From Candidatus Aminicenantes bacterium (GTDB lineage: Bacteria; Acidobacteriota; Aminicenantia; JAMOAD01), in NCBI GenBank assembly GCA_027067555.1, contig JAMOVU010000191.1:6750-70749 (forward strand): DNA of 64,000 nt, in the 5' to 3' direction. Both the position numbers and the translations under genes were made by a program. Numbering within the stretch: the first letter of the stretch is position 1; the number at the start of each line of letters is the position of its first letter. Below the pieces are notes generated by a model. It ran no database searches. It had not been told where the DNA came from and was given only the letters and a program-made list of their open reading frames with translations. Positions 1 to 19,926 of the stretch are shown here, one piece after another.

Positions 1-984
1 AAAGAGGTAAAAGTAAGTGTGATCAGAGACAGAGCTTTCAGTGTTTCCTCTCAGAGAATCTCTCAAACAATTTCAAGCGCTATTTCTGAAAGGCCTGTTA
101 CCCGGTTCAGATGGGGAAATAAAGAGGTTGATGTAATCTTTCAATTAAAAAAAGATAAAAACTTCACTTTAAGCAAACTAAAAAATATAACAGTGGAATC
201 CCAGTCAGGCTCATTACCTGTCTATGCTGTTGCAAGGTTCAGAATAGGAAAGGGAGCCCTTTCAATTGTAAAAGAAAACAAAAAGGCAATATTTACTGTT
301 GAAGCGAATACGGACATTCAAGGTATGTACAAAGTGAGAGATCTTGTAAAAAAAGCTATGGCAAATATAAAATTTCCTCCGGGATATAGCTGGAATATGG
401 GAGAGGATTGGAGAAGATTCAGAGAGGCACAGCAGAGCACAAATATGTCTCTTTTTTTAGGGATTTTTCTTATTTATGTTGTTATGGCATCACTTTTTGA
501 ATCATTCTCACAGCCATTTATTATTTTAATAACAGTGCCTCTTGCTCTCTTCGGAGTTGCAATAACCTTTCATCTGACAGGAGTTACCTTTGATAATGCA
601 TCCTCTTTAGGGCTTTTAATATTAATGGGAATAGTCGTAAACAATGGAATTATCCTAATTGATCACACCAATATTCTGCGAAAAAAGGGGAAAGCCCTTA
701 AAGAAGCGGTCGTTCAGGCGGGAAGGGACAGATTAAGGCCAATTCTAATGACAGCTCTTACGACAATTTTCGGACTTTTACCAATGAGTATGCCTCTGAT
801 TTTCCCCGGAGTTTTCGGACCTCCCGAGGGAAGAGCTTCAATGTGGGCGGGAATATCCCTTGTTGTTTTAGGGGGGCTTACAACCTCCACCTTCCTCACT
901 CTCACATTCCTACCATCTTTTTACTATATTTTTGAAACATGGAAGGCGAAGATATTTAAAAAAGCTGAGCAGCAGAACAGCTGA
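1..984 (+). CDS. RND efflux transporter permease (AcrB/CzcA family), C-terminal fragment; the N-terminus lies upstream of the window
   Basis: The ORF at 19..984 reads into the window start. The C-terminal transmembrane bundle of RND pumps is recognisable (FLGIFLIYVVMASLFESF...GLLILMGIVVNNGIILID, LRPILMTALTTIFGLLPM). Confidence 0.8.
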   Translation, partial: KEVKVSVIRDRAFSVSSQRISQTISSAISERPVTRFRWGNKEVDVIFQLKKDKNFTLSKLKNITVESQSGSLPVYAVARFRIGKGALSIVKENKKAIFTVEANTDIQGMYKVRDLVKKAMANIKFPPGYSWNMGEDWRRFREAQQSTNMSLFLGIFLIYVVMASLFESFSQPFIILITVPLALFGVAITFHLTGVTFDNASSLGLLILMGIVVNNGIILIDHTNILRKKGKALKEAVVQAGRDRLRPILMTALTTIFGLLPMSMPLIFPGVFGPPEGRASMWAGISLVVLGGLTTSTFLTLTFLPSFYYIFETWKAKIFKKAEQQNS

Positions 985-1085
985 ACAGCAGAGCAGCAGG
1001 AATTAAAATGAAAAATGAAGGAGTATTATGATACGAGTCGAGCAACCTCAAGAGATAAAAAAATGATAAATGAAATTGAATATAA

Positions 1086-1366
1086 AAATCATAATTTTTG
1101 TAGGGGCGGATTCCATATCCGTCCGTTTGGATTTTATATTTATATTTTCGGGCAGAAATTGATTCTGCCCCTACGGTGTTTTCAATTGGATTGTGATGTG
1201 TTGGTTTGTTTGTATGTATCTATGATTTTTCAAACCATTCGTAGGGGCGGATTCCATATCCGTCCGTTTCGGTTTTATATTTATATTTTCGGGCAGAAAT
1301 TGATTCTGCCCCTACTACGGTGTTTTTAAATGAATTGTGATGTATTGGTTTGTTTATATTAATGTA
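1086..1366. repeat. Two tandem copies of a ~145-bp REP/REPIN-like unit (GTAGGGGCGGATTC ... GATTCTGCCCCTAC inverted termini, internal hairpin GGGCAGAAATTGATTCTGCCC, conserved tail)
   Basis: The same unit recurs at 4858, 5303-5590, 10930-11165 and 14384-14489. The termini carry the GTAG/CTAC typical of REPs. The ORF at 1015..1329 is a translation artefact of this repeat. Confidence 0.85.
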
Positions 1367-1377
1367 TTTTTTTCGTT

Positions 1378-1403
1378 GTAGGGGAAATTCATGAATTACG
1401 CCA
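1378..1403. promoter_or_regulatory. Degenerate REP half-site (GTAGGGG) fused to a perfect 12-bp palindrome AATTCATGAATT, immediately 3' of the hsdR stop. It is the left member of imperfect direct repeats flanking the island.
   Basis: tAgGGGaAATTCaTGAATTaCgC here versus tAaGGGcAATTCgTGAATTgCaC at 14348..14373, about 19 of 24 identical in direct orientation. Confidence 0.4.
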
Positions 1404-1411
1404 ACGCTTGT

Positions 1412-4400
1412 TTATGCAGCCGTAAGTTTTTCAGCTATTTGCTCTGCCTGCTCAAGCACTGTTTCAGTCGCAAGTTTTTGCATATCAGGAGGATAGCCAT
1501 ACTTCCTGAGTGTTCTTTTCACTATTACCCTTAATTTTGCCTTTGCACTTTCCCTGATTGTCCAGTCTATGGAAGCATTCTCTTTAACCTTCTGAAACAA
1601 AACCACAGCCAATTCGCGTAATTTTTCCTTTCCCATTAATTCAACAGCACTCTTATTATTTGCCACTGCAGAATAAAATGCATACTCCTCTTCACTCAAG
1701 CCCATTTCCTCAGGCTCTTTATCGGCTTTTTGTATTTCTTTTGCTACATCAATAAGCTCTTCAATGAATTGAGCAGCGGTAATTATTTTATTGTGATATC
1801 TTTTGATAGCATTTTCCAGCATTTCCATTAAAGAACGACTCTGAACTATATTTTTTCTTGCTCTGCTCTTTATCTCATCATTTAATATTTTTTTCAGAAC
1901 CTCCATTGCGATATTCTTATGTTTCATATTTTTTACTTCAAGTAAAAACTCTTCGGACAAAATCTCAATATTGGGCTTTTTTATCCCGGCAGCATCAAAT
2001 ATATCCACAACCTCATCCGATACCAAAGCTTTGTCTATTACCTGTTTTATTGTTGTCTCCAAATCAACCCTTCCCTCTTTGCCCAGAAAAGATTTTGAAT
2101 CAAATTTCACAAGGCGTGATTTCACAGCCTGAAAAAAAGCCACTTCATCCTTAACCAATAGTGCTTCCTCATGAGGTATTGCAATCGCAAATGCCTTTGA
2201 TAATGCGGTCACCTCATCTATATATCTTTTTTTGCCATTCTCCAGTCCCAGAATATGTTCTTCGGCTTCCAATATTATATTCAGCTTTCTTGATGTATCG
2301 GCTTCAAAGTACTCCCTATAATTAAAGCCGAAAAACATCTGCCTTACAATCTCCAGCTTTTCGCTCATTACCATCACTGCTTCTTCCTGAGCAATGGCAG
2401 GTTTTCCTCTTCCACCGCCATCAGCATAAAAAGATAGTGCCTCTTTCAAATCCGAAGCTATTCCCAAATAATCCACAATAAGCCCGGCCGGTTTGTCCTT
2501 GTAAACTCTATTTACCCTTGCTATAGCCTGCATCAGGGTGTGGCCCCTCATCGGTTTGTCTATATACATTGTATGCAAAGATGGCACATCAAACCCTGTA
2601 AGCCACATGTCCCTTACAATCACAAGTTTTAATTCATTCTCCGGATCTTTCATTCTGTCAGCAAGTCTTCTCCTTTGCTCTTTTGTCGTATGATATTTTG
2701 CCATCTTAGGGCCATCCGAAGATGCTGCTGTCATCACAACTTTTATAAATCCTTTGTCCAAATCATCACTATGCCACTCGGGCCTGATTTTAATTATTTC
2801 CTCATACAAATCCACAGCTATCCTTCGGGACATTGCCACAATCATGCCTTTACCATCCATCACTGACAATCTTTCCTCAAAATGCAAAACTATATCCTCA
2901 GCTATTCTTTTTATCCTATCCTTACTTCCTATCAATGCTTCCAATCTGGTCCACTTTACCTTTGCTCTCTCCGTATCAGCAAGCTCCATCCTTGCAAGAT
3001 CCTCGTCCAATTCTTTTATTAATTTTTTCCCTTCCTCCGATATTCCCACCTTTGCGAGCCTGCTCTCATAATAGATAGGCACAGTCATTTTATCCTCTAC
3101 GGATTTTGAAATATCATATACATCTATATAATTCCCAAAAACAGCCGGTGTGTTCTTATCATCTTTTTCAATCGGAGTTCCGGTAAATCCTATATATGTA
3201 GCATTTGGCAGGGCATCTCTCATATACTTTGCAAAACCATACTTGATTTCACCTGTTTCCCTATCCACTTTGCCTTTGAAACCATACTGTGTTCTGTGTG
3301 CCTCATCAGCTATTACAACAATATTACTTCTATCTGATAATTTTTCATAAACATTCCCTTCCTCAGGATGAAATTTCTGAATTGTTGTGAAAACTATACC
3401 CCCTGAAGCAACTTTCAAAAGGTCTTTCAATTCTTTCCTTGTCTGCGCCTGTCTGGGCTCCTGCCTCAAAAGTTCTTTTGAAGAAACAAAGGTTTCAAAC
3501 AATTGATCATCCAGATCATTTCTATCGGTAATTACAACAATAGTCGGATTATTCAATAATTGAATAATCTTTGCAGTGTAAAAAACCATGGAGAGAGATT
3601 TTCCGCTCCCCTGAGTATGCCAGATAACACCTGCCTTTTTGTCTCCCACCGGTTGTTCAAAGGTGCTCCTTAATCCGTAAATTTCAGGATCTATTTTTAC
3701 AAAATCATATCCCCCTCTATTGATTGCACTTGCCCTTAAAGTTTCTCTTACGGCTTTGTTGACAGCATAGTACTGGTGATAAGCGGCAATCTTTTTATCC
3801 AATTTTATTGTAATTTGCTTTGTTTTTTCATCCTCTCTGGAAGATCTGTTAAATACAATAAAATACCTCAAAAAATCAATCAATGTGGTTTTATTTAACA
3901 AACCTTTAATTAGTATCTCCATTTGATTTACAAGAGGGGAGGATTCTGCAATACCATCGGAAGATTTCCATGCCATAAATCTGTCCCATCCGGCGGACAG
4001 ACTTCCAACTTTTGCATCAAGTCCATCCGATATGATAATCATTTCATTAAAAACAAATAATGAAGGAATAGTTGCTTTGTATGTTTGAATCTGCCTGAAA
4101 GCAGACATTAATGTAGCATTTTCATCCGCAGGATTTTTCAGTTCAAATACACCAATGGGGATTCCATTTATGAATAAAACTATATCAGGCCTTTTATTTA
4201 CACCATTTTCTATCACAGTGAATTGATTTACAGCAATAAATTCATTATTTTCGGGTTTTTCAAAATCAACAAGCCATACAATATCCCCCCTTTCTTCTCC
4301 ATCCTTTCTATAAACAACCTTTACCCCTTCTGTTAACAAGCGGTGAAAATTCTCATTGTTAACCAGAAGATCGGGGGAATTAGCCCTTTGCAATTGCCTT

Positions 4401-4627
4401 AATACATCATTTATGGTGTTTTCGGGTATATCAGAATTTATTCTACGAATAGATCGAATCAATACATCATAGAGTAAGACAGTATCATAAGTATTGCGTT
4501 TTTTTACAATAGTGTTTGAGACATCCGAGTCAGGAGCAATATCAGGACCGAAAACATAATCCCATCCGAGAGATTTAAGGAGTTTTATTGCAAAATTTTC
4601 GATATCGTTTTCAATTATTTTTGACAT
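1412..4627 (-). CDS. hsdR: Type I restriction enzyme R subunit (HsdR), 1071 aa
   Basis: Typical HsdR N-terminus MSKIIENDIENFAIKLLKSLGWDY, Walker A TQGSGKSLSMVF, DEAH box VIADEAHRTQ, SF2 motifs, and a C-terminal helical domain. Confidence 0.95.
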   Translation of the reverse strand: MSKIIENDIENFAIKLLKSLGWDYVFGPDIAPDSDVSNTIVKKRNTYDTVLLYDVLIRSIRRINSDIPENTINDVLRQLQRANSPDLLVNNENFHRLLTEGVKVVYRKDGEERGDIVWLVDFEKPENNEFIAVNQFTVIENGVNKRPDIVLFINGIPIGVFELKNPADENATLMSAFRQIQTYKATIPSLFVFNEMIIISDGLDAKVGSLSAGWDRFMAWKSSDGIAESSPLVNQMEILIKGLLNKTTLIDFLRYFIVFNRSSREDEKTKQITIKLDKKIAAYHQYYAVNKAVRETLRASAINRGGYDFVKIDPEIYGLRSTFEQPVGDKKAGVIWHTQGSGKSLSMVFYTAKIIQLLNNPTIVVITDRNDLDDQLFETFVSSKELLRQEPRQAQTRKELKDLLKVASGGIVFTTIQKFHPEEGNVYEKLSDRSNIVVIADEAHRTQYGFKGKVDRETGEIKYGFAKYMRDALPNATYIGFTGTPIEKDDKNTPAVFGNYIDVYDISKSVEDKMTVPIYYESRLAKVGISEEGKKLIKELDEDLARMELADTERAKVKWTRLEALIGSKDRIKRIAEDIVLHFEERLSVMDGKGMIVAMSRRIAVDLYEEIIKIRPEWHSDDLDKGFIKVVMTAASSDGPKMAKYHTTKEQRRRLADRMKDPENELKLVIVRDMWLTGFDVPSLHTMYIDKPMRGHTLMQAIARVNRVYKDKPAGLIVDYLGIASDLKEALSFYADGGGRGKPAIAQEEAVMVMSEKLEIVRQMFFGFNYREYFEADTSRKLNIILEAEEHILGLENGKKRYIDEVTALSKAFAIAIPHEEALLVKDEVAFFQAVKSRLVKFDSKSFLGKEGRVDLETTIKQVIDKALVSDEVVDIFDAAGIKKPNIEILSEEFLLEVKNMKHKNIAMEVLKKILNDEIKSRARKNIVQSRSLMEMLENAIKRYHNKIITAAQFIEELIDVAKEIQKADKEPEEMGLSEEEYAFYSAVANNKSAVELMGKEKLRELAVVLFQKVKENASIDWTIRESAKAKLRVIVKRTLRKYGYPPDMQKLATETVLEQAEQIAEKLTAA

Positions 4628-5306
4628 AGTATTTGTCTTCCTCCCATTTTAAAGGGTTGCTAATAATGTATTCTGCGATTTTCAAATAATCCTTTTCATC
4701 CCTAATAATATGTTCATAATAATTGCGCTGCCAGATTCTTTTTTTAAATGGAGGTAAAAGGTTTTGTTTTACCATTTTTATATATTCAACCGTGGTATAT
4801 CGTTTAAATGTTTGCACGATTTTGGGCAATGATACCTTCTCGATTATTTTACCTTTCGGAGGGATGGATTCCATATCCAACCGTTTTGTTTTTATATTTA
4901 TATTCCGGGCAGAAATTGATTCTGCCCCTACGGATAATTCGATAATTTCTACAATGGCATGAAAATGGTTGGGCATTATTATATATTCATGCAATCTTGC
5001 ATTTGGAAAAATTTTCGGTATTTTCAACCAAATTTTTTCTATCATCTTTCCCGCATCATTCAAAATTATTTTATTTTCAACAATTTTACCAAACAATTCA
5101 ATCCTGCCTTGTGTACATATTGTAATATAATATAAACCCGATTGCGAATAATCATAATTTTTTAATCGGATGGAATGGCGGCGGGGGAGAGGGCGATTGT
5201 GTTTTCTGGTCATGGGAATACCTCGTTTTTGATTATTCTTTGTTTTTCCAATTTTTGCATGGGTAATTTCTGAATTACCTGTATAAAACATTTTGATTTT
5301 TTCCAT
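4611..5306 (-). CDS. REP-associated tyrosine transposase (RAYT) / IS200-family Y1 HuH transposase. It carries an in-frame REPIN insertion. The true start is probably the internal Met (MTRKHN...).
   Basis: HuH motif NHFHAIVEI, SLPKIVQTFKRYTT, and the catalytic Tyr region WQRNYYEHIIRDEKDYLKIAEYIISNP. Between EI and IPPK there is a 26-aa segment (IELSVGAESISARNINIKTKRLDMES) encoded by a REPIN copy. Confidence 0.8.
   Translation of the reverse strand: MEKIKMFYTGNSEITHAKIGKTKNNQKRGIPMTRKHNRPLPRRHSIRLKNYDYSQSGLYYITICTQGRIELFGKIVENKIILNDAGKMIEKIWLKIPKIFPNARLHEYIIMPNHFHAIVEIIELSVGAESISARNINIKTKRLDMESIPPKGKIIEKVSLPKIVQTFKRYTTVEYIKMVKQNLLPPFKKRIWQRNYYEHIIRDEKDYLKIAEYIISNPLKWEEDKYYVKNN
4858..4930. repeat. 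REPIN copy inserted inside the RAYT coding sequence (in-frame, ~26 codons)
   Basis: gGAGGGatGGATTCCATATCC...GGGCAGAAATTGATTCTGCCCCTAC matches the island repeat. The left arm is degenerate. Confidence 0.75.
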
Positions 5307-5590
5307 GATTTTTCAAACCATTCGTAGGGGCGGATTCCATATCCGACCGTTTGGGTTCCATGTTCACATTTTCGGGCAGAAATGGATTCTGCCCCTACGG
5401 TGTTTTTAAATGGATTGTGATGGGATGGTTTGTTTGTATGTAACCATGATTTTTCAAACCATTCGTAGGGGCGGATTCCATATCCGCCCATTTGGGTTTT
5501 ATATTTATATTTTAGGGCAGAAATGGATTCTGCCCCTACGGGGTTTTTAAATAAATTGTGATGTGTTGGTTTGTTTGTTTTGTTGTTATG
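5303..5590. repeat. Two tandem REPIN-like units (leader, REPIN, tail) between the RAYT and the helicase gene
   Basis: GTAGGGGCGGATTCCATATCCG...GGGCAGAAATGGATTCTGCCCCTACGG occurs twice with the conserved tail GTTTTTAAAT.GATTGTGATG.GWTGGTTTGTTTGT. The ORF at 5210..5734 is a translation artefact (VGAESISA.K...GYGIRPYEWFEKSW occurs twice). Confidence 0.85.
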
Positions 5591-5730
5591 ACAGGGTAAT
5601 TTCTTATAATTGGGTGGTTTGGGAATTGCCCTTATGGATTGGGCATTTATTATTCTTAAAAGATAAATTTTATCAATTATATTGAAATTAAAACCGTCAT
5701 TATAATATACAAACATAAAATCAAAAACTT

Positions 5731-7932
5731 TCACAAATTCCCCTTTATCTTCTCAATTTCGTATTTTAAAAAAAGATGCGGTCTTTTATTTATCAAGCTA
5801 ATAACTTCTTTTATTAATTTTTCATCATTACTTATTTCTTCTAAATTAATTTCATTTTTTATTTTTTCTATTGCTGATTTTGGAATGCCATATTCTAATA
5901 ATACAGATAATTTTTCAGGAACAAAATCATTTTCTAATAATGTTGCATAATAAGCATAGTCTCCTGCTTCCAAATTTTTCTTTTCACAAACAAATTTTTG
6001 AATATTATTGACGACATTTAACCATTTGGGAACCTTAAATTGAAACCAATGTCTGAAAATATTAAAAACATCTCTTATAGCTTCATTAAACAACTCATTG
6101 TCATTATATTTTGAGAAATAATTTTTTTCTTTATAGTATGTATAATTTGATTTTATTAAAAAAAGAATATCCTTATTAACAGTATAATCAAAAGTTACTT
6201 TTATTAGACGTTTTTTAGTCATGGGTCTAGTAGTTTCTCCTGATCTAAGTAAATTATCCCATGATAATTCTATCAAATAGCTTAGCTGTTGATAGTTTGG
6301 TATCCCATTCCAAGTTATTAAATTTTGTTTTCTCTTAATATCTTTATATAACTGTTCCAAAATCCTTTTCTGTCCCCAAACAGAAACACCGTTTTTCCTG
6401 AATAACTCTCTTTCGTCGTCAGTTAACTCACTCAATTTTTTATATTGCTCAGTATTTTTTACGATATCTTTTACATCATTTTTATGTAATGTTATTAATA
6501 CTTCATCTTCAATAGGTTTTTGCTGATAAAAAGGTATATCGATAATTAATTTTTCTTTTTTAGGTGGCGGGTTAAAATTATATATTTTCCCAATATAGTG
6601 GATCATAAAACGTCCAGCTCTGCCTTTAATATTAGAGTAATCAAAAAAATCAATAGATTTTCTATTCCCTTTGGTGTTATCAAAAAAAACGATATTTTTG
6701 GCGCTTGTATTTACACCTTCAATTAAAGTAGTAGTACAGAATAAATATTTTAGTCTTCCTTCATTAAAATAATCTACAATTGAAGAATTAATATGTTTAA
6801 TTAGTGCACCATCATTTATGCCAATACTATATTCTAAAATTTCTATTAGATTCCAATTAGTATGTACATTTTCTTTTATCCATTCAATTAATGGCAACTC
6901 ATGATCTATCTTCTTTTCTACTTCATTATTTTTTAAATAATTACAAAACTTCCATGCCAAATCTCTTACTTTTTTAGGAGAAGAACAATAAATAATAAAT
7001 TGTTCTTTTTCAGTATTCAATAACTCAAATAACACATGTTCTTTATATTGTTTCTTTTCCCCACGACTACCAAACTTTTTTTTATGTTCCAAATAGACAT
7101 CTATTATTTTTGATTCAACTAATTTGTAATCAGTTTTGTAAAATACAGCATTGTATTTTTGTGCAAAACCTTCAGAAATCCCATCTATATTTGGACCTAA
7201 TAAATAAAATTTTGGATTGTACTTTTTTAGTAATTTGTAAAATGCATTATTTAAAATATAGGCTCGCTCATCATCTCGTTTTTGGCTTAATTTATAGAAC
7301 TCATCTATAATAAGAAAATCTATTGGTGGTAAATTGGGATATTCCATTACTCGTTCCGCAGTTAATAAAAACAAATTACCTTTATCAGTAGCAGGTTCTT
7401 GTGTTGTTTTGACAATAATTTTATATCTTTCCTTGTATCTTTTTAGTTTTTTTCTAGTCTCATCCAACAAAGCTAAAGTTGGTTGTATTACCACTATATT
7501 CTTATATTTTCCGCTTGCAACAATCTCTTCGATTAATAAACTTTTGCCAAAGCTTGTAGGAGCACTAACTATTAAATTTTTATCACTTTCCAAAATATAT
7601 TTGAGTATTTTTTGCTCTTCATGAAGATAGATATTCTCTAAATTTTCTGATAAATGAAACTCCTTTCTTATTTTTCCATCTATTGTAGATGGTTCACCTC
7701 TTTCTTTTTTTAAATATGGATAAAAACCTGCCATTTCTACTATGTCAAACCAAATATCCTTAGTATGTTCAGGGATTTTTTTGAAGTTCTCTAAAATATA
7801 AATGAGTAATCTGTGACCTAAGTTTTCATTATTTCGTAATTCATTAGCACAAATTTTGGCATAGCTAAAACTTTCATCAACAGATATCGAATCTTTGCTC
7901 TCTATATTTTTTATTATCGCTTCTATATTCAT
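5731..7932 (-). CDS. SF2 (DExH-type) helicase, 733 aa. HamB-like partner of the upstream nuclease-like protein (candidate Hachiman effector).
   Basis: Motif I-like LIVSAPTSFGKSLL, motif II FLIIDEFYKL, motif V-like FCTTTLIEGVN and motif VI IKGRAGRF. There are long N- and C-terminal extensions. The start overlaps the stop of the 338-aa ORF at 7932/7933. Confidence 0.6.
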   Translation of the reverse strand: MNIEAIIKNIESKDSISVDESFSYAKICANELRNNENLGHRLLIYILENFKKIPEHTKDIWFDIVEMAGFYPYLKKERGEPSTIDGKIRKEFHLSENLENIYLHEEQKILKYILESDKNLIVSAPTSFGKSLLIEEIVASGKYKNIVVIQPTLALLDETRKKLKRYKERYKIIVKTTQEPATDKGNLFLLTAERVMEYPNLPPIDFLIIDEFYKLSQKRDDERAYILNNAFYKLLKKYNPKFYLLGPNIDGISEGFAQKYNAVFYKTDYKLVESKIIDVYLEHKKKFGSRGEKKQYKEHVLFELLNTEKEQFIIYCSSPKKVRDLAWKFCNYLKNNEVEKKIDHELPLIEWIKENVHTNWNLIEILEYSIGINDGALIKHINSSIVDYFNEGRLKYLFCTTTLIEGVNTSAKNIVFFDNTKGNRKSIDFFDYSNIKGRAGRFMIHYIGKIYNFNPPPKKEKLIIDIPFYQQKPIEDEVLITLHKNDVKDIVKNTEQYKKLSELTDDERELFRKNGVSVWGQKRILEQLYKDIKRKQNLITWNGIPNYQQLSYLIELSWDNLLRSGETTRPMTKKRLIKVTFDYTVNKDILFLIKSNYTYYKEKNYFSKYNDNELFNEAIRDVFNIFRHWFQFKVPKWLNVVNNIQKFVCEKKNLEAGDYAYYATLLENDFVPEKLSVLLEYGIPKSAIEKIKNEINLEEISNDEKLIKEVISLINKRPHLFLKYEIEKIKGNL

Positions 7933-8949
7933 TTATATCCCTTGAATCTTTGAAAGTTTCCTATGCAATTCTTTCACTAATTCGCTTTTATTAGGAACGG
8001 GGAAAAGCATTACAATAACATTTAAATCAGAATGAATAGGTTCTCCTGAATTTTTATATTTCTTTTGTAACTCTTTAAACTTATTATAGAATATTTCTTT
8101 AAGATACCTTATTTCTCTTTCATATTCTCTAATAAATTCTTCATTTTCATCATTTGTATGGTTTGAAAAGACTTCAGATGTATATGTACACAACAGAGGT
8201 ATTGTTACAGATGAAAACAAATCTTGTAATTTACCATTTTGATTTGCAACTCTGTCCAATTCATCAAACCAATATTCTTTTTGTCTTAAAAATTCTTCAT
8301 ACTGATCTTTTGTATTTAAGTCGATATACTCTTCAAGTTTCAAAAAAGCGTTTTTTTTCTTCCCAATTAGCATAAACTCTCTTTTTAAGAAATCTTTTGT
8401 AAAATGTTCTTCAATATCATTTAATAACGCTTCTACCCCTTTTTTACCGTCTTTATATAACTTAGATTCACCAAGATAAATTGAACTACAGTCAGATTTC
8501 CTTAAATTAGGTCCAATATGAATTGCATCAAAACCATGCACTGTTATACCATCAGAATCCTTAAAGTATATTTTTGATACCAAAGGAACTGTATTAATAA
8601 AATCTCGCAAGATAAGATGTAATATCAATTCACCAAACTCACCTCGTTTTAGATATTTTTCCTGAATATCATCTTCGTACTCACCATTATTTTCTAAATA
8701 TGTTTTTTTTGATTGTTTAAAAACCTCTATTTTATATAGAGATTGAGCCGCCTCTTTTAATATTTTTCTTGTATAAGTCTGTTTTATACCCTCATGAAAT
8801 CCAAAAACAAAATCCACTAAAACATCCATCAATATATTTAATAAATCATCAAGTCTATATTTACCAAAATCGAAACCAACAAAATACGCTCTAAGATCTG
8901 CTTCTGATATATGCTCGGTAATAACTTCTTCAGAACCAAAAACACTCAT
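7933..8949 (-). CDS. PD-(D/E)xK nuclease-like protein, 338 aa (HamA/DUF1837-like candidate)
   Basis: GEFGELILHLIL (helix Glu) ... HGFDAIHIG ... 17 aa ... IYLGESKLY gives the D...ExK geometry. The ORF is wedged between hsdS (4-nt overlap at 8946..8949) and the helicase, so translational coupling is likely. Confidence 0.5.
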   Translation of the reverse strand: MSVFGSEEVITEHISEADLRAYFVGFDFGKYRLDDLLNILMDVLVDFVFGFHEGIKQTYTRKILKEAAQSLYKIEVFKQSKKTYLENNGEYEDDIQEKYLKRGEFGELILHLILRDFINTVPLVSKIYFKDSDGITVHGFDAIHIGPNLRKSDCSSIYLGESKLYKDGKKGVEALLNDIEEHFTKDFLKREFMLIGKKKNAFLKLEEYIDLNTKDQYEEFLRQKEYWFDELDRVANQNGKLQDLFSSVTIPLLCTYTSEVFSNHTNDENEEFIREYEREIRYLKEIFYNKFKELQKKYKNSGEPIHSDLNVIVMLFPVPNKSELVKELHRKLSKIQGI

Positions 8950-10124
8950 ACCTTCACCCTCACCTCCCCACTCATTAATTTTGGCAATAATGTGTCGCGT
9001 AGTTTTTCTAATGTGTGGATTTGTTGTTCGTTGCTTCTGATTTTGTCTAAAAATTTTTTTACTACTGTATGAAAATACAAGGACTTCTTTTCATTAAATG
9101 AAAAGGAGAGTTCAAAAATATCTCGTGCTTTGACTCTTTGATGACTTCCACTGGTTCCGCTTGCTGCGCCAATTAACTCATTAGTTACTTGAATAGATTT
9201 TAACAAATAATAAATAAAGCTAAAGTATTCTTTCTTCTTTGGAAAAACAACTATAAATTCTGTTGAACAAACAGAGTACTCTTTATTTTCAATTTTACCC
9301 CATATTGCCCAAACTCTTGGAAGTCTTGGATTTAATTTTGAGATCAATATTGAATGCTCAAAAACTTTATATTTATTACTTTTTATTTCCATTCCCAATT
9401 CCTTTATTGGTTTTTTCCCTGCGTCAAAAGCTGGAATACTAAAATGCAAGAATTCTATCTCCGGATCTTTGTTAGGCACAATATTTACTTTTTTATGTTC
9501 TGCAATCTCAAATAGCTGCTTCTCCTCCCAATCCTCCTCCGCCTCTTCTATAAACCATTTTCTAAATAGAGTTTCTGCCATGGCTTCTAATGTTTTGTTT
9601 TGGCGGTGGAGGAGATCTATTTTGTCATCAAGGGAGGAGAGGACAGAGGCAATGGCGCGTTGTTCGTCAATTGATTCTGGGATTATCCATTCTGTTTTTT
9701 TCATAAAATTCCATTCGGCTCTTGGCATTCTAGTTCCTGATGCTCCTTTTGTTGCTAAGTCTATAAATTCGTAAGTTGCAAATAAGTAAAACAAAAAATT
9801 TTTATCCGTATTTTCTTTGGGTGCAACTACCCAAATATCAGTAGAACAAATCCCTTTAAACTTAGGATTGTACAATTTCCTAAAATATGGTCTTAATTTA
9901 CCAAATAAAAACTCTTCTTCAGTGAAAATATATTTATTACTTTTAATATCATCCGAAAAACCAATAGTTTTTAATCTTAAAGAAGATTCCTCTATGTGTT
10001 CTAAACCTATATACGGTAATTTTTCATTACCAACTTTCCACGCTCTCTTTAATACCTGTGCTATTTCTTCTAATTTTACTTTTTTCCAACCTTTTAGCAT
10101 TCTTTCATCCATTCTCTGCACCAC
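8946..10124 (-). CDS. hsdS: Type I restriction-modification specificity subunit (HsdS), 392 aa, with two target-recognition domains
   Basis: Conserved central and C-terminal coiled-coil repeats LDDKIDLLHRQNKTLEAMAETLFRKWF and LDKIRSNEQQIHTLEKLRDTLLPKLMSGEVRV. Confidence 0.9.
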   Translation of the reverse strand: MVQRMDERMLKGWKKVKLEEIAQVLKRAWKVGNEKLPYIGLEHIEESSLRLKTIGFSDDIKSNKYIFTEEEFLFGKLRPYFRKLYNPKFKGICSTDIWVVAPKENTDKNFLFYLFATYEFIDLATKGASGTRMPRAEWNFMKKTEWIIPESIDEQRAIASVLSSLDDKIDLLHRQNKTLEAMAETLFRKWFIEEAEEDWEEKQLFEIAEHKKVNIVPNKDPEIEFLHFSIPAFDAGKKPIKELGMEIKSNKYKVFEHSILISKLNPRLPRVWAIWGKIENKEYSVCSTEFIVVFPKKKEYFSFIYYLLKSIQVTNELIGAASGTSGSHQRVKARDIFELSFSFNEKKSLYFHTVVKKFLDKIRSNEQQIHTLEKLRDTLLPKLMSGEVRVKV

Positions 10125-10917
10125 TTTTTATTTCCTCAACATAAGATTTTAGCCATTCGTATTTTTGTTTGACTTTCTCATCTGTACTATTTATATTTTT
10201 TTCAACTATCTCTTCTACTTCCCCTATTATTCGTTCGTAATTACTTTTACTTTCTCTGTTCCATACTATAGAAAATCTTTTATTTTCATTTATTATATTT
10301 TCTCCAATTTTACGTAACACTTTCCTATTCAATAAATCAAGAAAATAGATCCCATCCTTATCTTTTTTGATTCCATTAATAAGAAAACCATCATTTTGTT
10401 TTTCAAGAAAAGGAGATCCTTTTATGTTTTTGTTTTTAATGTATTCAACTAATTTTTCGTCAACTACAATCCTCGGATAAATAGCAATTTCGGATTCAAG
10501 TTTGTAAGCTTCTACCAAGCCAGGACCAATCAAAACATTTTCTTCTTTTTTCGGAAAATACATTTTACCTACTGTTATTGCTCCTCTGAAACAAAATCCC
10601 TTTTCCCAAAATCTATCCTGCAAATATCTGACAATCAAAAAAAGATGAGGTAAATTACGCGGCTCTTTTTTCATTATAAACGCGAAACTATCCGAAAAAT
10701 AAAAACTTCTTATATCCAAATTTCCATCTTTTGATGTTTCTTTGCTTGTAGATTTCGTAATCTTTGAATTGATTTTAATTACCTTAATTATATCTTCTAA
10801 TAACTTTTTATTTTCCCCATTTTCTATCTCTTTTAATAAATTTTTAACCCCCAAAACATCCAAATAGCATATAAAACAATCTTCTAAATTATATTCGCTC
10901 ATTTTAATTTCTCCCAT
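10105..10917 (-). CDS. Hypothetical protein of 270 aa with a class III nucleotidyl-cyclase-like palm-domain signature (possible signalling nucleotide cyclase; uncertain)
   Basis: ICYLDVLGVKNL resembles FADIVGFT. FYFSDSFAFI resembles IGDAYMAVF. FRGAITVGKMYF resembles RIGIHTGPVV. GPGLVEAYKLESE resembles GDTVNLAARLES, but the transition-state Asn/Arg are absent. The ORF overlaps the hsdS start by 20 nt. Confidence 0.35.
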   Translation of the reverse strand: MGEIKMSEYNLEDCFICYLDVLGVKNLLKEIENGENKKLLEDIIKVIKINSKITKSTSKETSKDGNLDIRSFYFSDSFAFIMKKEPRNLPHLFLIVRYLQDRFWEKGFCFRGAITVGKMYFPKKEENVLIGPGLVEAYKLESEIAIYPRIVVDEKLVEYIKNKNIKGSPFLEKQNDGFLINGIKKDKDGIYFLDLLNRKVLRKIGENIINENKRFSIVWNRESKSNYERIIGEVEEIVEKNINSTDEKVKQKYEWLKSYVEEIKSGAENG

Positions 10918-10929
10918 GTTTTGGTTTTT

Positions 10930-11165
10930 TGTTTATTTTATTTTTATATTTTCGGGCAGAAATTGATTCTGCCCCTACGGGGTTTTTAAATAAATTGTGA
11001 TGGGATGGTTTGTTTGTATGTAACCATGATTTTTTAAACCATTCGTAGGGACGGATTCCATATCCGCCCGTTTGGGTTTCATGTTCATATTTTCGGGCAG
11101 AAATAGATTCTGCCCCTACGGTATTTTCAATTGGATTGTGATGGGATGGTTTGTTTGTATCATTA
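10930..11165. repeat. About 1.5 REPIN-like units (a right-half partial copy followed by a full copy) between the cyclase-like gene and the AlbA_2 gene
   Basis: TTTTCGGGCAGAAATTGATTCTGCCCCTACGG, then the tail, then GTAGGGACGGATTCCATATCCGCCCG...CTGCCCCTACGG. The ORF at 10904..11179 is a repeat artefact. Confidence 0.85.
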
Positions 11166-11175
11166 ATTGTTTTAA

Positions 11176-12771
11176 TCATTTTTTATTTTTAACCATTTTT
11201 TCTTCTTTAATCAAAACATAAAATGCCAAACCGCGTTTAGTTAACTTGAATTTTTGTTTCGGACTGTTCAAATTATCTTTAATTGTATGCTCTATTAACT
11301 TAAAGTTATGTAGTTTTTTCAATATTTTATTTAACCCTCCGGAAATAGATTTTTGCCCCAATTCCAAAGAAATTTCTTTACGTGATTTAGGAGAATTCAA
11401 TAATATAAACAATATGCGCAAGAAAAGAGACTCTTGCTCTATCTCTTGCCTCAACTCTTGCCTCAACTCTTGCCTCAACTCTTGCTTTTCATTCTCAAGC
11501 CCGGCTTTTAGCCATCGGATAATTTCCTCGGAAAAAATTATAGATGAAGGGAATAGTTGTCCGTAATCATCTCTGGTTTTTTGTTTTTGGTCCGTAATCG
11601 TTCGTGATTGGGCATAATCGGTTTTTATGAATGTTACTCTGAATGAAAATCCGGGCTCGCTCCATTCCATCTTTATTTCCGGATATTTTTTTAATTCTTT
11701 GGAAATCAGTTTAAGCCCGTTTCCCCATTGCTCTATGATACCGAGCTTTTTAAAAACAGGTGCCAATACCTTATTTCTTATATCTGATTGACCTGATTCC
11801 ATATCATCAAAATCAATGGTAGGCATAAGCTTCCCGGGGCTTGTGATCTCTATTTTATCGTCAAATATGGCAATTTTAATATCTTTGCCTTTTAAAGAAT
11901 AATCTCTGTGAATCACTGCATTTCGTATGAGTTCACGGATTGCTACTACAGGATACTCCCACCTGTCTTTTCTGTAAACTCCCTCATATGAGGAGCCCTG
12001 AGAGATGTGCCTCAAAACAAATTTATAAGCCTCTTCCGCCTGAAAGCTCAACGGAGTTTCTATTGTTTTTTGATCTATGAATTCTCCGGGAATTTTTCCC
12101 TTGAATCTTGCACACTCTATTTTTGCATAAGGAAAAAGTCTTTTCCTGATTTCATCATTTGAAAGTAATACAAGGGCATTTGTGGGAAAATCCCTGTTCT
12201 GATCTGTGATAATCAAGTTCAGTTTTCTTAAAATTGTTTTGGTAAGCTTCTCTCCGGTGATTTCCTCAAATTGATTTCTAAATTGAGAGATGGTTAATTC
12301 ATTCGCTTCTTTTAAATGCACAAGAATAGAATCAAAGGAAATGTTTTGTTTCTGTCTTTCTAACTCTTCAATCATATCTTTGTCCGCAAGGCGGTTTGTT
12401 GAGCCGACTCGGATATAAGTTCCTTTCCATTTTCCCTTGTTTTTCAAATAATAGGGAGGATTGCTTCCTTTGTAAATTCTAACTTTTATAATATGTTTAC
12501 CTTGATAATTTACAAAAGAAATATCGGGCAGTACTATCGGATAGCAATTATCATGAATGATGTTGCTTATTTTTTCTTCCATTGAAATCAACTTTTCCTC
12601 GGAAATTCCTATGATTTTTCTTGGTTCATTTTTTATTCCTATGAAAATCTCACCTCCCGCATCATTAGCAAAAGCAACAACAGTTTTACATAAATCATTT
12701 TTTAAAGGAAGTGTTTCTTTAAATTCAAGCTTTCTTCCTTCTGGCTGTTTTAATAATTCTTCAATTTTCAT
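11176..12771 (-). CDS. AlbA_2 (Schlafen-like) plus HATPase_c_4 ATP-binding protein with a C-terminal wHTH. This is the family often annotated as a RecG-like transcriptional regulator in Type I R-M loci. 531 aa.
   Basis: [11 protein letters not shown]...[19 protein letters not shown] (AlbA_2), [14 protein letters not shown] (HATPase_c_4), and a C-terminal HTH-like segment. It contains (ELRQ)x3 encoded by a 15-bp tandem repeat at about 11440-11490. Confidence 0.75.
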
Positions 12772-14344
12772 TATCTTTTTCCGAATCAGATAAATCTATC
12801 TTTTCAAGATTTTCAAGAATCAATTTGTTTAATCTCTCTTCTTCCTTTAATTGTTCAAGAAATTCTGCCTTTAATTTTGAAAACCTTTCTTCAAAGTCAA
12901 AATCATCATCTTCTTCCGGAAGTCCGACATAACGACCCGGAGTGAGCACATAATCAAGCTCTCTTACCTCTTCTATTTTTACGGATTTGCAAAATCCCTT
13001 TACATCCTCATAGCTTTCATCTCCCCTCTGCCAATTGTGATAAGTATCAGCAATCTTTCTTATATCCTCCTCCGTTAATACACGGGTCCTTCTGTTTATA
13101 AGAGTACCCATATCTCTTGCATCTATGAAGAGAATCTCCCCTTTCCTATTTTTTTTGTTTCTGTTTAAAAACCATAAAGAGGCAGGTATCTGAGTGTTTA
13201 AAAATAGTTTTGTCGGAAGATTGACAATGCATTCGACAAGATCATTTTCAATAATATTCTTTCTTATCTCATATTCTCCTTTGCTTTTTGTGGTTAATGC
13301 TCCTTTTGCAAGAACAAAGCCAGCTCTTCCATTCGGATTCAGGTGATAGATAAAGTGTTGTATCCATGCGTAATTCGCATTTCCCACAGGGGGGACTCCG
13401 TATTTCCATCTGCCATCACTTCTGAGCAATTCTCCGCTCCAATCACTGTCATTGAAAGGAGGATTTGCTATTACAAAATCAGCTTTCAGATCTTTGTGAG
13501 CATCATTCAAAAAAGAGCCCTCAGGATTCCATTTTACCTGAGTTGAGTCAATCTGTCTTATCGCAAGGTTCATTTTACAGAGACGCCATGTAGTCTGATT
13601 ACTCTCCTGTCCGTATATTGATATGTCATCCACTTTTCCCTGATGCTCTTTTACAAATTTTTCGGATTGAACAAACATTCCGCCGGAACCGCAGCATGGG
13701 TCAAACACTCTTCCTCTGTAAGGTTCAAGCATCTCAACAAGTAGTTCAACAACACTTCGAGGAGTGTAAAATTGCCCCCCTTTTCTTCCCTCGGCAAGAG
13801 CAAATTGCCCTAAAAAATACTCGAAAACATGCCCCAAAATATCTGCACTTCTCTTTGTAGCCTCTCCCAGTGCAATATTACCTATCAAATCAATCAAACC
13901 GCCTAAAGACAGAGGATCCAGATTCCCCTTTGCATACACCTTTGGCAAAACACCTTTTAATGATGGATTTTCCTTTTCTATTATATCCATTGCATTATCC
14001 AATATCTTTCCTATTTCCGGATTTTTTGCATTATTAAGAAGGTATGACCATCTTGCTTCGGGTGGGACATAAAAAATATTTTTAGCCCTGTATTCATCTA
14101 TATCTTCGGGATCCGCCCCTTCTTCCACTTTGCTTTTTAGTTTTTCATACAGGTCTTCAAAAGCGTCTGAGATATACCGCAAAAATATTAAACCCAATAC
14201 CACATGTTTGTATTCAGCAGCATCAATATTTTTTCTTAGTTTATCCGCAGCTTTCCACAACTGTTTTTCAAGATTTTCCTCTTTTTCTTTTTTATTCATA
14301 TTGCCCTCTTTTTTTATTTTATCTTTTTTATTTGTGATTGGCAA
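12761..14344 (-). CDS. hsdM: Type I R-M N6-adenine DNA methyltransferase subunit (HsdM). The ORF begins at a TTG; the ATG ([15 protein letters not shown]) 15 codons in is the likelier start.
   Basis: HsdM N-domain [38 protein letters not shown] motif [11 protein letters not shown], and catalytic VIANPPFN. Confidence 0.93.
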
Positions 14345-14353
14345 GAATTAAGG

Positions 14354-14369
14354 GCAATTCGTGAATTGC
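14354..14369. promoter_or_regulatory. Perfect 16-bp palindrome GCAATTC-GT-GAATTGC sitting 10 nt 5' of the annotated TTG start of hsdM, and about 50 nt 5' of the likelier ATG. It is a candidate operator and the right member of the island-flanking repeats.
   Basis: The 7-bp inverted repeat was read directly from the sequence. It lies between an AT-rich -10-like TATTAT and the hsdM start. Its core AATTCRTGAATT is shared with the site at 1386..1397. Confidence 0.4.
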
Positions 14370-14383
14370 ACGCATAATAATTT

Positions 14384-14489
14384 TTGATGTTTTCCATGAT
14401 TTTTTAAACCCTTTGTAGGGGCGGATTCTGTATCCGACCGTTTGGATTTTATGTTCATATTTTCGGGCAGAAATGGATTCTGCCCCTAC
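14384..14489. repeat. Single REPIN-like unit at the right edge of the island
   Basis: Leader CCATGATTTTTTAAACCCTTT, then GTAGGGGCGGATTCTGTATCCGACCG...GGGCAGAAATGGATTCTGCCCCTAC. Confidence 0.85.
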
Positions 14490-14974
14490 ATTGTTTTATC
14501 GAACTCTTTTTTTAATTTTTCAAAGGTTTTTTCTATACCTTCAAACATAACCTTTGTTTCTCCGAATAAGGGCATAAAATTGGCATCCCCTTCCCATCGG
14601 GGAACTATGTGAAGATGAAAGTGATCGGGAACACCGGCACCTGCAGGTCTTCCAAGATTCATTCCAATGTTAAAACCCTGAGGATGATAAACATTTTCAA
14701 GAATCTCAAGGGCTTTTAACATTAAGGTGTTCATCTCATCTATTGTTTCTTTCTTTGCCTTTAAAGGAGAGTCAAGATGCTCATAGGGAGCAATTAAAAG
14801 ATGACCATTATTGTAAGGATAAAGGTTTAAAATTATAAAAGAGTGTTTGCCTTTGAAAAGAATGTATCTTTCTTCGGGTTTTTTATGTTTTGAAGCTTCA
14901 CATAAAAAACATTCCTCGTTATCAAGCCCCTCTTTTATATACTTCTCTCTCCAGGGGGTTACAAGATATTTCAT
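14486..14974 (-). CDS. HIT-superfamily protein (GalT/Ap4A-phosphorylase-like branch), 162 aa
   Basis: The histidine triad HFHLHIVPR is near the C-terminus, and there is an N-terminal CxxC. Confidence 0.7.
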   Translation of the reverse strand: MKYLVTPWREKYIKEGLDNEECFLCEASKHKKPEERYILFKGKHSFIILNLYPYNNGHLLIAPYEHLDSPLKAKKETIDEMNTLMLKALEILENVYHPQGFNIGMNLGRPAGAGVPDHFHLHIVPRWEGDANFMPLFGETKVMFEGIEKTFEKLKKEFDKTM

Positions 14975-14980
14975 TGTATC

Positions 14981-17797: not shown

Positions 17798-17852
17798 TTT
17801 CGGTAGTATAATTGTCTATTTCTTTTTTGTCAAGGTTTTGAAATATATTAGC

Positions 17853-19863: not shown

Positions 19864-19926
19864 TAACTATTATATATAAATAGAAAGGGCATTTCAATCA
19901 ATTTTTAAAAAATAACAAACAATCCT

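Follow-up and report, generated by a model that had tools for sequence, protein, structure and literature searches.

Defence genes are found nested inside the operons of Type I restriction-modification (R-M) systems; a habit described as ‘guilt-by-embedding’ by Payne et al. (2024, bioRxiv 10.1101/2024.01.29.577857), whose supplementary tables for genes embedded in Type I R-M, BREX and DISARM systems include the AlbA_2/HATPase_c_4 architecture as FAM_00002. In Vibrio cholerae, for example, TgvAB is nested in the Type I R-M system of VPI-2, where synergy with R-M has been seen (PMC11411939). PrrC and RloC are triggered when phage proteins neutralise Type I R-M. The locus analysed here lies within a 64,000-nt stretch (‘the window’) of a Candidatus Aminicenantes bacterium contig, JAMOVU010000191.1. 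Like the published nested operons, it places same-strand defence genes between hsdM/hsdS and hsdR, its cargo is variable, and that cargo includes a member of the AlbA_2/HATPase_c_4 family; unlike them, it fills two separate cargo slots at once and carries a RAYT/REPIN element. Our preferred explanation, which we consider probable, is that an intact Type I R-M operon has become a mosaic defence island through genes nested in two slots: slot 1 (hsdM–hsdS) would have received a COG2865-type AlbA_2/HATPase_c_4 protein together with a protein that we refer to as P270, an R-M-linked accessory enzyme, and slot 2 (hsdS–hsdR) a complete type I Hachiman system plus a RAYT, the REPINs of which would have spread to nearby intergenic gaps.

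Table 1. Features of the defence island (positions within the window)
Feature	Positions	Strand	Remarks
Downstream island border	1037-1373	.	two tandem REPINs
hsdR	1412-4627	-	Type I restriction/translocase subunit
RAYT ORF as first called	4611-5306	-	Y1/RAYT transposase
RAYT, 200 aa, likely start 5213	4611-5213	-	putative REP-associated tyrosine transposase
Spacer hamB/RAYT	5214-5730	.	two tandem REPINs, 5324-5398 and 5465-5539
hamB	5731-7932	-	Hachiman SF2 (Ski2-like) helicase
hamA	7933-8949	-	Hachiman effector nuclease (DUF1837)
hsdS	8946-10124	-	specificity subunit, two target-recognition domains
P270 ORF, 270 aa as first called	10105-10917	-	
P270, 265 aa, likely start 10902	10105-10902	-	stop overlaps hsdS start
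REPIN-filled spacer AlbA_2/P270	10903-11175	.	about 1.5 REPINs; REP motif at 10965, 11045, 11106; repeat families D1-D8
AlbA_2+HATPase_c_4 ORF	11176-12771	-	Schlafen-like, COG2865 type
hsdM ORF	12761-14344	-	Type I N6-adenine DNA methyltransferase subunit
Upstream island border, hsdM to HIT-family gene	14352-14497	.	one REPIN

Working along the minus strand from hsdM, we see eight intact and co-oriented genes: hsdM, AlbA_2/HATPase_c_4, P270 (a 265-aa protein), hsdS, hamA, hamB, RAYT and hsdR (Table 1). The original prediction had counted nine; the co-orientation stands, and the lower count leaves out translated REPINs. Its hsdM-hsdS-hsdR order is borne out by ORF positions and profile identities alike, as is the tight packing of the five junctions that it named: hsdM and the AlbA_2 gene overlap by 11 nt, P270 and hsdS by 20 nt (or 8 nt under the public annotation), hsdS and hamA by 4 nt, and RAYT and hsdR by 17 nt, with hamA and hamB directly abutting (a gap of 0 nt). 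The public annotation has hsdM begin with the ATG at 14299 and encode a protein of 512 aa. Single-strand orientation had also been taken as a hallmark of the island, but the minus strand is the background state here, prevailing across the rest of the window: at 14.3–64 kb, essentially all ORFs that reach 120 aa or more lie on it, one 882-aa gene excepted. Neither co-orientation nor the presence of REPINs is informative about co-transcription, and the region might be transcribed as three units, parted by the two REPIN spacers (273 and 517 nt).

Judged by domain content, HsdM, HsdS and HsdR together have all the parts of a Type I R-M system. HsdM matches N6_Mtase (Pfam PF02384, 4.3e-114), HsdM_N (PF12161, 6.6e-30) and PADLOC MTase_I (1.2e-197), and has an NPPF motif at residues 294–297; its score against TIGR00497 is 206 bits, below the equivalog cut-off of 243, and we therefore place it in a divergent lineage. 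The two target-recognition domains of HsdS are seen as two stretches of Methylase_S (PF01420), the protein matching PADLOC Specificity_I over its full length (residues 13–392, 3.3e-69). HsdR contains HSDR_N (1.3e-49), SWI2_SNF2 (7e-78) and T1RH-like_C (3.2e-132) as well as T1R_D3-like, carries GSGKS and DEAH motifs, and scores 611 bits against TIGR00348 (2.9e-183; cut-off 284.55) and 1266 bits against PADLOC REase_I.

Immediately after hsdS come the genes for a 338-aa nuclease-like protein and a 733-aa helicase. In the model published for Hachiman (Tuck et al. 2024, PMC12278908), the HamB helicase responds to DNA ends or damage by letting go of HamA, a nuclease that then clears DNA. The first protein matches HamA (PF08878, 3.7e-38) and, over its full length, PADLOC HamA1 (1.5e-103); the D-E(X)K motif, as defined in PMC12278908, corresponds to D141 and E161-x-K163. 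The second matches PADLOC HamB1 over its full length (residues 9–730, 2e-234), with Walker A (GKS, 129–131), motif II (DEFY, 210–213; DEGH in the E. coli protein) and motif VI (GRAGR, 437–441) all present. These full-length matches rule out a novel nuclease-helicase pair; by profile, gene order (hamA then hamB), D-E(X)K and intact helicase motifs, hamA and hamB form a complete type I Hachiman system of the kind already described, which differs from those elsewhere in that its hamA is nested right after hsdS, with a 4-nt overlap. Two of the three proteins once put forward as the best candidates for an undescribed system are thus HamA and HamB, with a solved mechanism (PADLOC, PMC12278908), and the proposal holds for the 270-aa protein only; P270 is the sole truly uncharacterised component of the island.

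The other occupant of slot 1 combines SLFN_AlbA_2 (5.4e-27) and HATPase_c_4 (1.3e-24) domains; like Hachiman, it is of defence type, and the inserted genes are not all housekeeping. Relatives that share the backbone (HsdM 76–80% and HsdR 61–67% identical) carry other cargo. Locus L003 has Fic, ORF6N, AlbA_2, ORF6N and P270, followed by hsdS and PDDEXK_3; L082 has RhuM, DUF1016 and P270, followed by hsdS; and L086 has AlbA_2 and P270, followed by hsdS and then DUF6161 ... UDG ... PLDc, its AlbA_2 protein being a 70%-identical orthologue in the same position, the gene for which overlaps that of P270 with no spacer between, as against the REPIN spacer in the window. In L194/L195 the stretch that starts at the 3′ end of hsdS and takes in hamA and hamB has 85% nucleotide identity to the window (window versus L194: HamA 66% and HamB 90% identical), P270 is missing, ORF6N lies upstream of hsdS and a RAYT is again found downstream. 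GC content is similarly patchy: 26–28% for hamAB, 28% for P270 and 37% for hsdM and hsdR, compared with 32.7% for the window. By synteny, the island is a mosaic, its modules variable on a common backbone rather than part of a conserved core; the picture originally proposed, of a Type I R-M scaffold with accessory defence cargo, is upheld, with cargo that occupies the M-to-S and S-to-R slots and differs among relatives.

Both the variation of the cargo and the GC mosaic would also suit a second reading, in which the cargo is selfish or mobile DNA in a tolerant site, its modules functionally untied and divided among at least three separate transcription units. The RAYT and REPINs, with REPIN spacers parting three blocks, are in keeping with this, as is minus-strand co-orientation that is the local default. 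Saying this, the five overlapping or abutting junctions suggest translational coupling within blocks, the catalytic motifs are all intact, and no integrase or tRNA was found at the island borders; the nested genes are, moreover, of defence type rather than transposons, as fits ‘guilt-by-embedding’. On balance we judge purely selfish cargo to be rather unlikely, though worth keeping in mind.

The RAYT itself, a putative member of the REP-associated family, matches NCBIfam REP_Tyr_transpos (NF047646, 5.5e-19) at 68.5 bits, under the 80-bit cut-off, and Pfam Y1_Tnp (4.1e-5), with its HUH motif (HFH) at residues 83–85 and YY at 165–166. Scanning the window gave 15 REP-motif matches against 1.18 expected by chance, all within 1100–14489, the other 49.5 kb being free of them; 14 exact or near-exact motifs form inverted pairs ∼61 nt apart, all less than 10 kb from the RAYT. 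The REPIN unit is 141 nt long, and one such unit folds into a long hairpin (−22.1 kcal/mol, z = −2.9). A HUH/Tyr Y1 transposase with inverted REP doublets and long hairpins clustered around its gene recalls other RAYT/REPIN systems; here, unlike in those, the RAYT is nested in an R-M operon, overlaps the hsdR start and scores below the NCBIfam cut-off. REPINs fill four gaps—1100–1315 (downstream of hsdR), 5324–5539 (hamB/RAYT), 10965–11119 (AlbA_2/P270) and 14415–14489 (upstream of hsdM)—and a further REP pair sits, in frame, within the RAYT coding sequence (∼4859–4931), a further departure from such systems, shared with the RAYT homologue of L194/L195. They had been said to mark every module junction but are absent from M/AlbA_2, P270/S, S/hamA and RAYT/R; REPINs do not delimit modules. 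Three ORFs were rejected as genes, each being a translated REPIN: one of 91 aa (10904–11179), one of 174 aa (5210–5734) and one of 104 aa on the plus strand (1015–1329).

Turning to P270, its AF2 model (pLDDT 93.8, pTM 0.92) comprises an N-terminal class III nucleotidyl-cyclase-fold domain (∼residues 5–160) and a C-terminal extension of ∼100 aa; the earlier guess of a cyclase-like/palm protein was right at the level of fold. In this model D15 sits at the end of β1, S70-D71 at a hairpin turn, and R106-G107 at the opening of the next strand; positions that we take to be the canonical sites of the cyclase domain. The protein retains both metal-binding aspartates of class III cyclases (β1 and the β2–β3 hairpin) along with their phosphate-binding arginine. 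Class III cyclases act as dimers. Aligned by eye, their canonical motif G-x-x-V-N-x-A-x-R-L-E-S reads G-P-G-L-V-E-A-Y-K-L-E-S in P270, such that the transition-state-stabilising Asn appears to be replaced, and Lys to stand in for Arg. The extension is a further point of difference from PycC and class III cyclases, being an extra, conserved ∼100 aa with D181, D183, K247 and W250; P270 has no match to these cyclases in sequence, its likeness to them being confined to the fold. The family amounts to ∼16,000 sequence clusters and is without a Pfam, NCBIfam or PADLOC model; the PDC/HEC candidate models of PADLOC v2.0.0 likewise give no match to P270. We infer that P270 would be a catalytically active, NTP-using enzyme (a cyclase or nucleotidyltransferase), serving as an R-M-linked accessory defence gene.

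A cyclase fold in a defence island invites comparison with Pycsar, and P270 might be a Pycsar-like cyclase that signals to an effector encoded elsewhere in the genome. This we consider very unlikely: PF00211 does not match the window protein (a single weak match, 9e-4, was obtained among 94 relatives), PADLOC PycC matches neither P270 nor 93 relatives, and at the level of fold general adenylyl/guanylyl cyclases score above PycC. Pycsar has an adjacent effector in which a cNMP-binding domain is fused to TM or TIR, whereas the neighbours of P270 are the AlbA_2 protein and hsdS; TM, TIR or cNMP-binding effectors are absent beside it in the window, and over ∼80 loci no such effector is seen to recur. 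Since P270 has no conserved neighbour that encodes an effector or receptor, any signalling role would be one without a visible target.

Genomic context ties the closer members of the family to R-M, P270 belonging to a subfamily that occurs almost exclusively within DNA-methyltransferase-based systems. Counting a locus as linked if hsdM, hsdS, hsdR or a methyltransferase of Eco57I type lies in the same orientation no more than 5 kb away, we score 18 of 24 assessable loci for homologues at least 39% identical to P270 (16 of the 24 with such a gene within 600 nt), none of 18 loci for those 31–39% identical, and 13 of 103 where identity is lower than 31%. Against the link, a few close members lie amid housekeeping genes (L083, L010), and most distant ones have no R-M genes beside them. 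The linked systems are of several unrelated kinds: Type I (at least three HsdM lineages), an Eco57I-type methyltransferase with a PLD/SNF2 helicase, and MmeI-like enzymes. P270 is coupled directly to hsdS in the window and in eight other loci (L002, L003, L082, L086, L088, L114, L120 and L121), and the adjacency is kept throughout the lineage with HsdM 76–80% identical. P270 holds a place that is usually that of hsdM, the gene whose translation is coupled to that of hsdS; M-S translational coupling has been described for EcoKI (PMC3510504).

Such an intimate arrangement, in hsdM's canonical upstream position, maintained within a lineage and seen in three R-M architectures, each time with the methyltransferase/specificity portion, could mean that P270 is an accessory or regulatory R-M subunit, tuning methylation or restriction via a nucleotide signal or M2S binding, for example, rather than a defence effector. 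We hold this to be unlikely, as close R-M relatives function without P270 (ORF6N-hsdS-hamA in L194/L195) and its position is inconstant, falling after S in L084 and L088 and in the methyltransferase–helicase gap in L087. The family as a whole, furthermore, is mostly found away from R-M, with members also on plasmids and proviral contigs; occurrences typical of mobile, stand-alone accessory genes.

Alternatively, the two genes of slot 1 may constitute one sensor-effector module, inserted jointly between hsdM and hsdS. The order AlbA_2-then-P270 does recur, in the window, L086, L114 and L003 (with ORF6N between), in L009, where it follows SNF2-DUF4391 and is not part of a Type I system, and, as a distant pair, in L060. 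An AlbA_2-like gene is nevertheless upstream of P270 at only ∼5 of 21 close loci (L086 added by hand) and 1 of 94 distant ones, and L082, L085, L004, L084 and L087 have P270 in R-M systems that lack AlbA_2. Because AlbA_2/HATPase_c_4 is itself listed as an embedded family (R-M, BREX, DISARM), some co-occurrence within the one niche is to be expected, and a joint module strikes us as improbable.

Returning to P270 as an R-M-linked accessory enzyme, it may be a back-up that fires on restriction failure, as PrrC and RloC do. The likeness lies in genomic habit, PrrC and RloC being single genes for which Type I R-M operons are nearly the sole setting; these proteins combine an ABC-ATPase with an anticodon-nuclease domain, and P270 has a cyclase fold in which those domains are absent. 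Taken further, the analogy would make P270 a new restriction guard: co-translated with HsdS, silenced by the methyltransferase/specificity complex, and freed when a phage anti-restriction protein disables R-M, it would then synthesise a nucleotide product or consume NTPs, leading to aborted infection. An effector-less, cyclase-based counterpart of PrrC/RloC of this sort, operating also with Eco57I- and MmeI-type systems, is a speculative proposal that we consider unlikely.

Overall, the island, most parts of which have already been named, is a textbook case of the published nesting pattern, and with two independent cargo slots filled in one operon it shows that nesting can stack. What it adds is one concrete, testable target: a family without a model, with a confident cyclase fold and conserved catalytic aspartates, a subfamily of which, at about three-quarters of the loci that could be assessed, is nested in DNA-methyltransferase-based R-M and as a rule coupled to hsdS. 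Were P270 a defence enzyme, it would be a new kind of restriction-system guard or else a cyclase that needs no effector of its own; either outcome, if true, would add a mechanism to the immune strategies of bacteria.

Along the minus strand of the island, from 14344 down to 1412, the ORF call gives products of 527, 531, 91, 270, 392, 338, 733, 174, 231 and 1071 aa, amongst which we see, in order, hsdM, the AlbA_2/HATPase_c_4 gene, P270 (the 270-aa ORF, with a 265-aa product), hsdS, hamA, hamB, a probable REP-associated tyrosine transposase (RAYT) and hsdR. Nested within an intact Type I R-M operon are a Hachiman system, a RAYT/REPIN element, a COG2865 protein (AlbA_2/HATPase_c_4) and P270, and these make up the island. 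A motif scan finds every catalytic motif intact: NPPF in HsdM, GSGKS and DEAH in HsdR, D141 and E161-x-K163 in HamA, Walker A and DEFY in HamB, and HUH and YY in the RAYT. The start/stop junctions proposed in the original prediction are borne out, with overlaps of 11 nt (hsdM/AlbA_2), 20 nt (P270/hsdS), 4 nt (hsdS/hamA) and 17 nt (RAYT/hsdR), and hamA and hamB abutting; the blocks are set apart by REPIN-filled spacers, one of 273 nt between AlbA_2 and P270 and one of 517 nt between hamB and the RAYT. A 12-nt tandem repeat of at least three copies within the AlbA_2/HATPase_c_4 gene encodes (QELR)n near the C-terminus.

Features of the window and of the gathered loci with homologues (L numbers, each with its own coordinates)
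Feature	Locus	Coordinates	Strand	Evidence or remark
HsdM	window		-	N6_Mtase 4.3e-114 (profile search)
AlbA_2 + HATPase_c_4 protein	window		-	profile search
12-nt tandem repeat	window	11430-11477
P270	window	10105-10902	-	predicted class III nucleotidyl-cyclase fold
HsdS	window		-	two Methylase_S stretches; PADLOC Specificity_I 3.3e-69
HamA	window		-	PF08878 3.7e-38; PADLOC HamA1 1.5e-103
HamB	window		-	PADLOC HamB1 2e-234, full length
RAYT	window	4611-5213	-	NF047646 5.5e-19
HsdR	window		-	TIGR00348 2.9e-183
REP pair inside RAYT	window	4859-4931
Internal REP motif of RAYT homologue	L194	6748-6866
Internal REP motif of RAYT homologue	L195	5944-6062
REPIN ORF, 104 aa	window	1015-1329	+
REPIN ORF, 174 aa	window	5210-5734	-
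REPIN ORF, 91 aa	window	10904-11179	-
REPIN ORFs called protein-coding	L001	9724-9999; 15169-15693
Hachiman comparison	window	5731-8949
Hachiman comparison	L194	1231-4446
882-aa gene	window	40260-42908
MNT/HepT pair and OLD-family protein	L004	12211-14850
MNT/HepT pair	L085	11565-12213
P270 fusion with N-terminal domain	L032	1776-3560
P270 fusion with N-terminal domain	L038	9029-10870
P270 fusion with N-terminal domain	L045	9041-10867
P270 fusion with N-terminal domain	L064	9074-10876
P270 fusion with N-terminal domain	L079	8951-10879
Tandem P270-family pair	L028	8952-10747
Tandem P270-family pair	L030	2063-3858
Tandem P270-family pair	L059	9935-11791
Ubiquitin-like set	L084	12754-15622

Housekeeping genes flank the island (an AcrB-type transporter to the left; HIT, HU, S1 and IspH to the right). 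Window 1-20,000 contains no tRNA genes and window 1-16,000 no Rfam families, and none of the genes called in the surroundings of the island is an integrase; promoter-like sites score no better than the shuffled level, and the REPIN hairpins score as terminators on the non-coding strand only. The island genes do share one strand, as originally claimed, but this is not distinctive, since nearly all large ORFs elsewhere in the window are also on the minus strand. Between 14300 and 64000 the strand bias is extreme, ORFs of at least 120 aa being essentially all minus with the exception of one 882-aa gene.

The REP motif GTAGGGGCNGAWTC occurs in 15 copies against 1.18 expected, all within 1100-14489, with 0 in the other 49.5 kb. 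Its copies pair as inverted repeats (REPINs) to form long hairpins (-22.1 kcal/mol, z = -2.9), located at both outer island borders, in the AlbA_2-P270 and hamB-RAYT gaps and, as one degenerate pair, inside the RAYT ORF. No REPIN lies at the hsdM/AlbA_2, P270/hsdS, hsdS/hamA or RAYT/hsdR junctions, so the claim that these elements mark every module junction is wrong; they simply occupy intergenic gaps close to their RAYT. The 91-aa and 174-aa ORFs have a peptide in common ('...NKPSHHN...VGAESISA...GGYGIRPYEWF...') and coincide with a 141-nt direct-repeat family, and are thus translated repeats that we reject as genes, though both are called in the public assembly. The REPIN arrays yield three ORFs in all, two of them being annotation artefacts of that metagenome assembly (L001). 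The REP pair inside the RAYT coding sequence is in frame, falls past the HUH motif and ahead of the catalytic Tyr, and encodes ...VGAESISAR...MESIPP...; the same internal motif is seen in RAYT homologues (47-52% identical) at L194 and L195.

The nuclease-helicase pair, put forward as a candidate for an undescribed system, matches the HamA and HamB profiles and is Hachiman, in which HamB recognises damaged DNA or DNA ends, whereupon HamA, being a nuclease of the D-E(X)K type, degrades DNA (PMC12278908). Type I R-M operons with defence genes nested in them are already on record, both for TgvAB on V. cholerae VPI-2 (PMC11411939) and in the survey by Payne et al. on 'guilt-by-embedding' (10.1101/2024.01.29.577857); the supplementary tables of the latter, on genes that sit inside BREX, DISARM and Type I R-M systems, list AlbA_2 + HATPase_c_4 (+HTH), COG2865, as FAM_00002. 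The original prediction was largely right in its observation and half right in its interpretation; the general phenomenon and most of the parts are already known.

Three relatives (L003, L086 and L082) have the R-M backbone of the window (HsdM 76-80% identical; HsdR, where present, 61-67%). The first reads hsdM, Fic, ORF6N, AlbA_2, ORF6N, P270, hsdS, PDDEXK_3, hsdR; the second hsdM, AlbA_2 (70% identical over residues 1-408 only, the C-terminal 120 aa being unalignable), P270, hsdS, DUF6161, ..., UDG, ..., PLDc, hsdR; and the third hsdM, RhuM, DUF1016, P270, hsdS. Hachiman is absent from all three (0/3). Window 5730-9028, comprising the hsdS 3' end, hamA and hamB, is found as an 85% nucleotide-identical segment at L194 and L195, each with a RAYT homologue downstream of it; at L195, ORF6N and not P270 stands upstream of hsdS. 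GC content is 26-28% in hamAB, 28% in P270 and 37% in hsdM and hsdR, for 32.7% across the window. Taken together, the differing layouts, the segment shared with L194 and L195 and the mosaic GC indicate that both cargo slots, hsdM-to-hsdS and hsdS-to-hsdR, are variable; the relatives hold different cargo, not an identical arrangement conserved as core. Variable cargo might also be a set of functionally unrelated selfish insertions, a reading we consider unlikely though worth keeping in mind. Within the block shared with L194, HamB is 90% and HamA 66% identical, implying that the nuclease subunit is diverging much faster than the helicase. Type I operons with an 820-aa HsdM (L004, L085) carry an MNT/HepT toxin-antitoxin pair in the hsdS-to-hsdR slot, joined in L004 (Thermosulfurimonas dismutans) by an OLD-family AAA_15+TOPRIM protein; this cargo is a further case of stacked nesting.

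The 270-aa protein, singled out originally as a candidate for something undescribed, has kept that standing: it finds no credible match in Pfam, NCBIfam or PADLOC and still belongs to no family of theirs, and the literature searched holds no description of a cyclase-like gene within Type I R-M operons. Its sole match, PycTM to residues 4-55 (0.0041), we treat as noise. A P270-family profile run against all PDB sequences returned one spurious coiled-coil match and nothing else; Foldseek against viral structures (BFVD) gave no significant match, and tblastn against phage genomes none. The first homologue search returned 119 proteins, all unnamed and without Pfam domains, and an exhaustive profile search 16,128 cluster representatives at E <= 1e-3 (2,053 at <= 1e-30). 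Fused TPRs and one weak PF00211 match apart, 94 diverse members have no Pfam, NCBIfam or PADLOC match, and 94/94 match phrog_23933 (function unknown). Homologues are also present on 68 plasmid records, every one annotated 'hypothetical', and in 25 IMG/VR contigs.

Residues D15, G18, D71, R106, G107, G126 and P143 are invariant in the family alignment and map, on the predicted model, to the end of beta1, the turn of the beta-hairpin and the start of the next strand—positions which in class III cyclases carry a pair of aspartates that bind metal and an arginine that binds phosphate. By-eye alignment suggests that the transition-state Asn has probably been lost; the C-terminal region of ~100 aa conserves D181, D183, K247 and W250. 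Pycsar systems combine a cyclase recognisable by PF00211/PycC with an effector, whereas P270 lacks both such a match and an effector, and we reject its membership.

We gathered 80 P270 loci from genomes, 80 from metagenomes and several more via exact-match look-ups, scoring nearby R-M genes with iterated profiles and measuring identity against the window protein. Amongst homologues at least 39% identical, 18 of 24 assessable loci have an R-M gene on the same strand within 5 kb and 16 within 600 nt; at 31-39% identity both counts are 0 (18 loci), and below 31% they are 13 and 8 (103 loci). These contexts are heterogeneous, spanning Type I systems from at least three HsdM lineages, an Eco57I-type methyltransferase with a PLD/SNF2 helicase downstream of it (L005, L087) and SNF2-DUF4391 clusters (L009, L011). 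The close subfamily is specialised to methyltransferase-based restriction systems, mostly directly upstream of hsdS. So placed, P270 could conceivably be a regulatory subunit of the R-M system, which seems to us improbable.

When the four genes either side of P270 were clustered over 79 loci, no conserved partner recurred except R-M subunits, RhuM and AlbA_2; the 129 immediate neighbours cover 125 different Pfam families, headed by Methylase_S, N6_Mtase and RhuM. With no other partner recurring, P270 is a stand-alone gene. That AlbA_2 and P270 form one two-gene module is quite doubtful, the two being paired at only ~5 of 21 close loci. Five Bacteroidota homologues of P270 have in common a fused N-terminal domain of ~320 aa, the fusions of L032 and L038 directly following Eco57I/MmeI-family methyltransferases, as also at metagenome locus L178; this domain has no Pfam match and no credible PDB match, and is thus uninformative as a 'Rosetta stone' fusion. 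Tandem paralogous P270-family pairs adjoin hsdM at three loci (two methanogen, one Ruminococcaceae). At L084 a ubiquitin-like / DUF2604 / ThiF (E1-like) set adjoins an hsdR-hsdM-hsdS-P270 cluster and resembles bacterial ubiquitin-like conjugation defence systems.

We infer that P270 would be an active NTP-using enzyme, working as an R-M-linked accessory defence gene. Against this stand the probable loss of the transition-state Asn, the lack of a visible effector gene, and the surroundings other than R-M in which a few close members and most distant ones lie. A function as guard of the R-M system is an attractive, if unproven, proposal, given the coupling to hsdS and a PrrC-like genomic habit, the likeness to PrrC being one of habit. 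The cyclase-fold family represented by P270 is the one novel, testable lead at the island.
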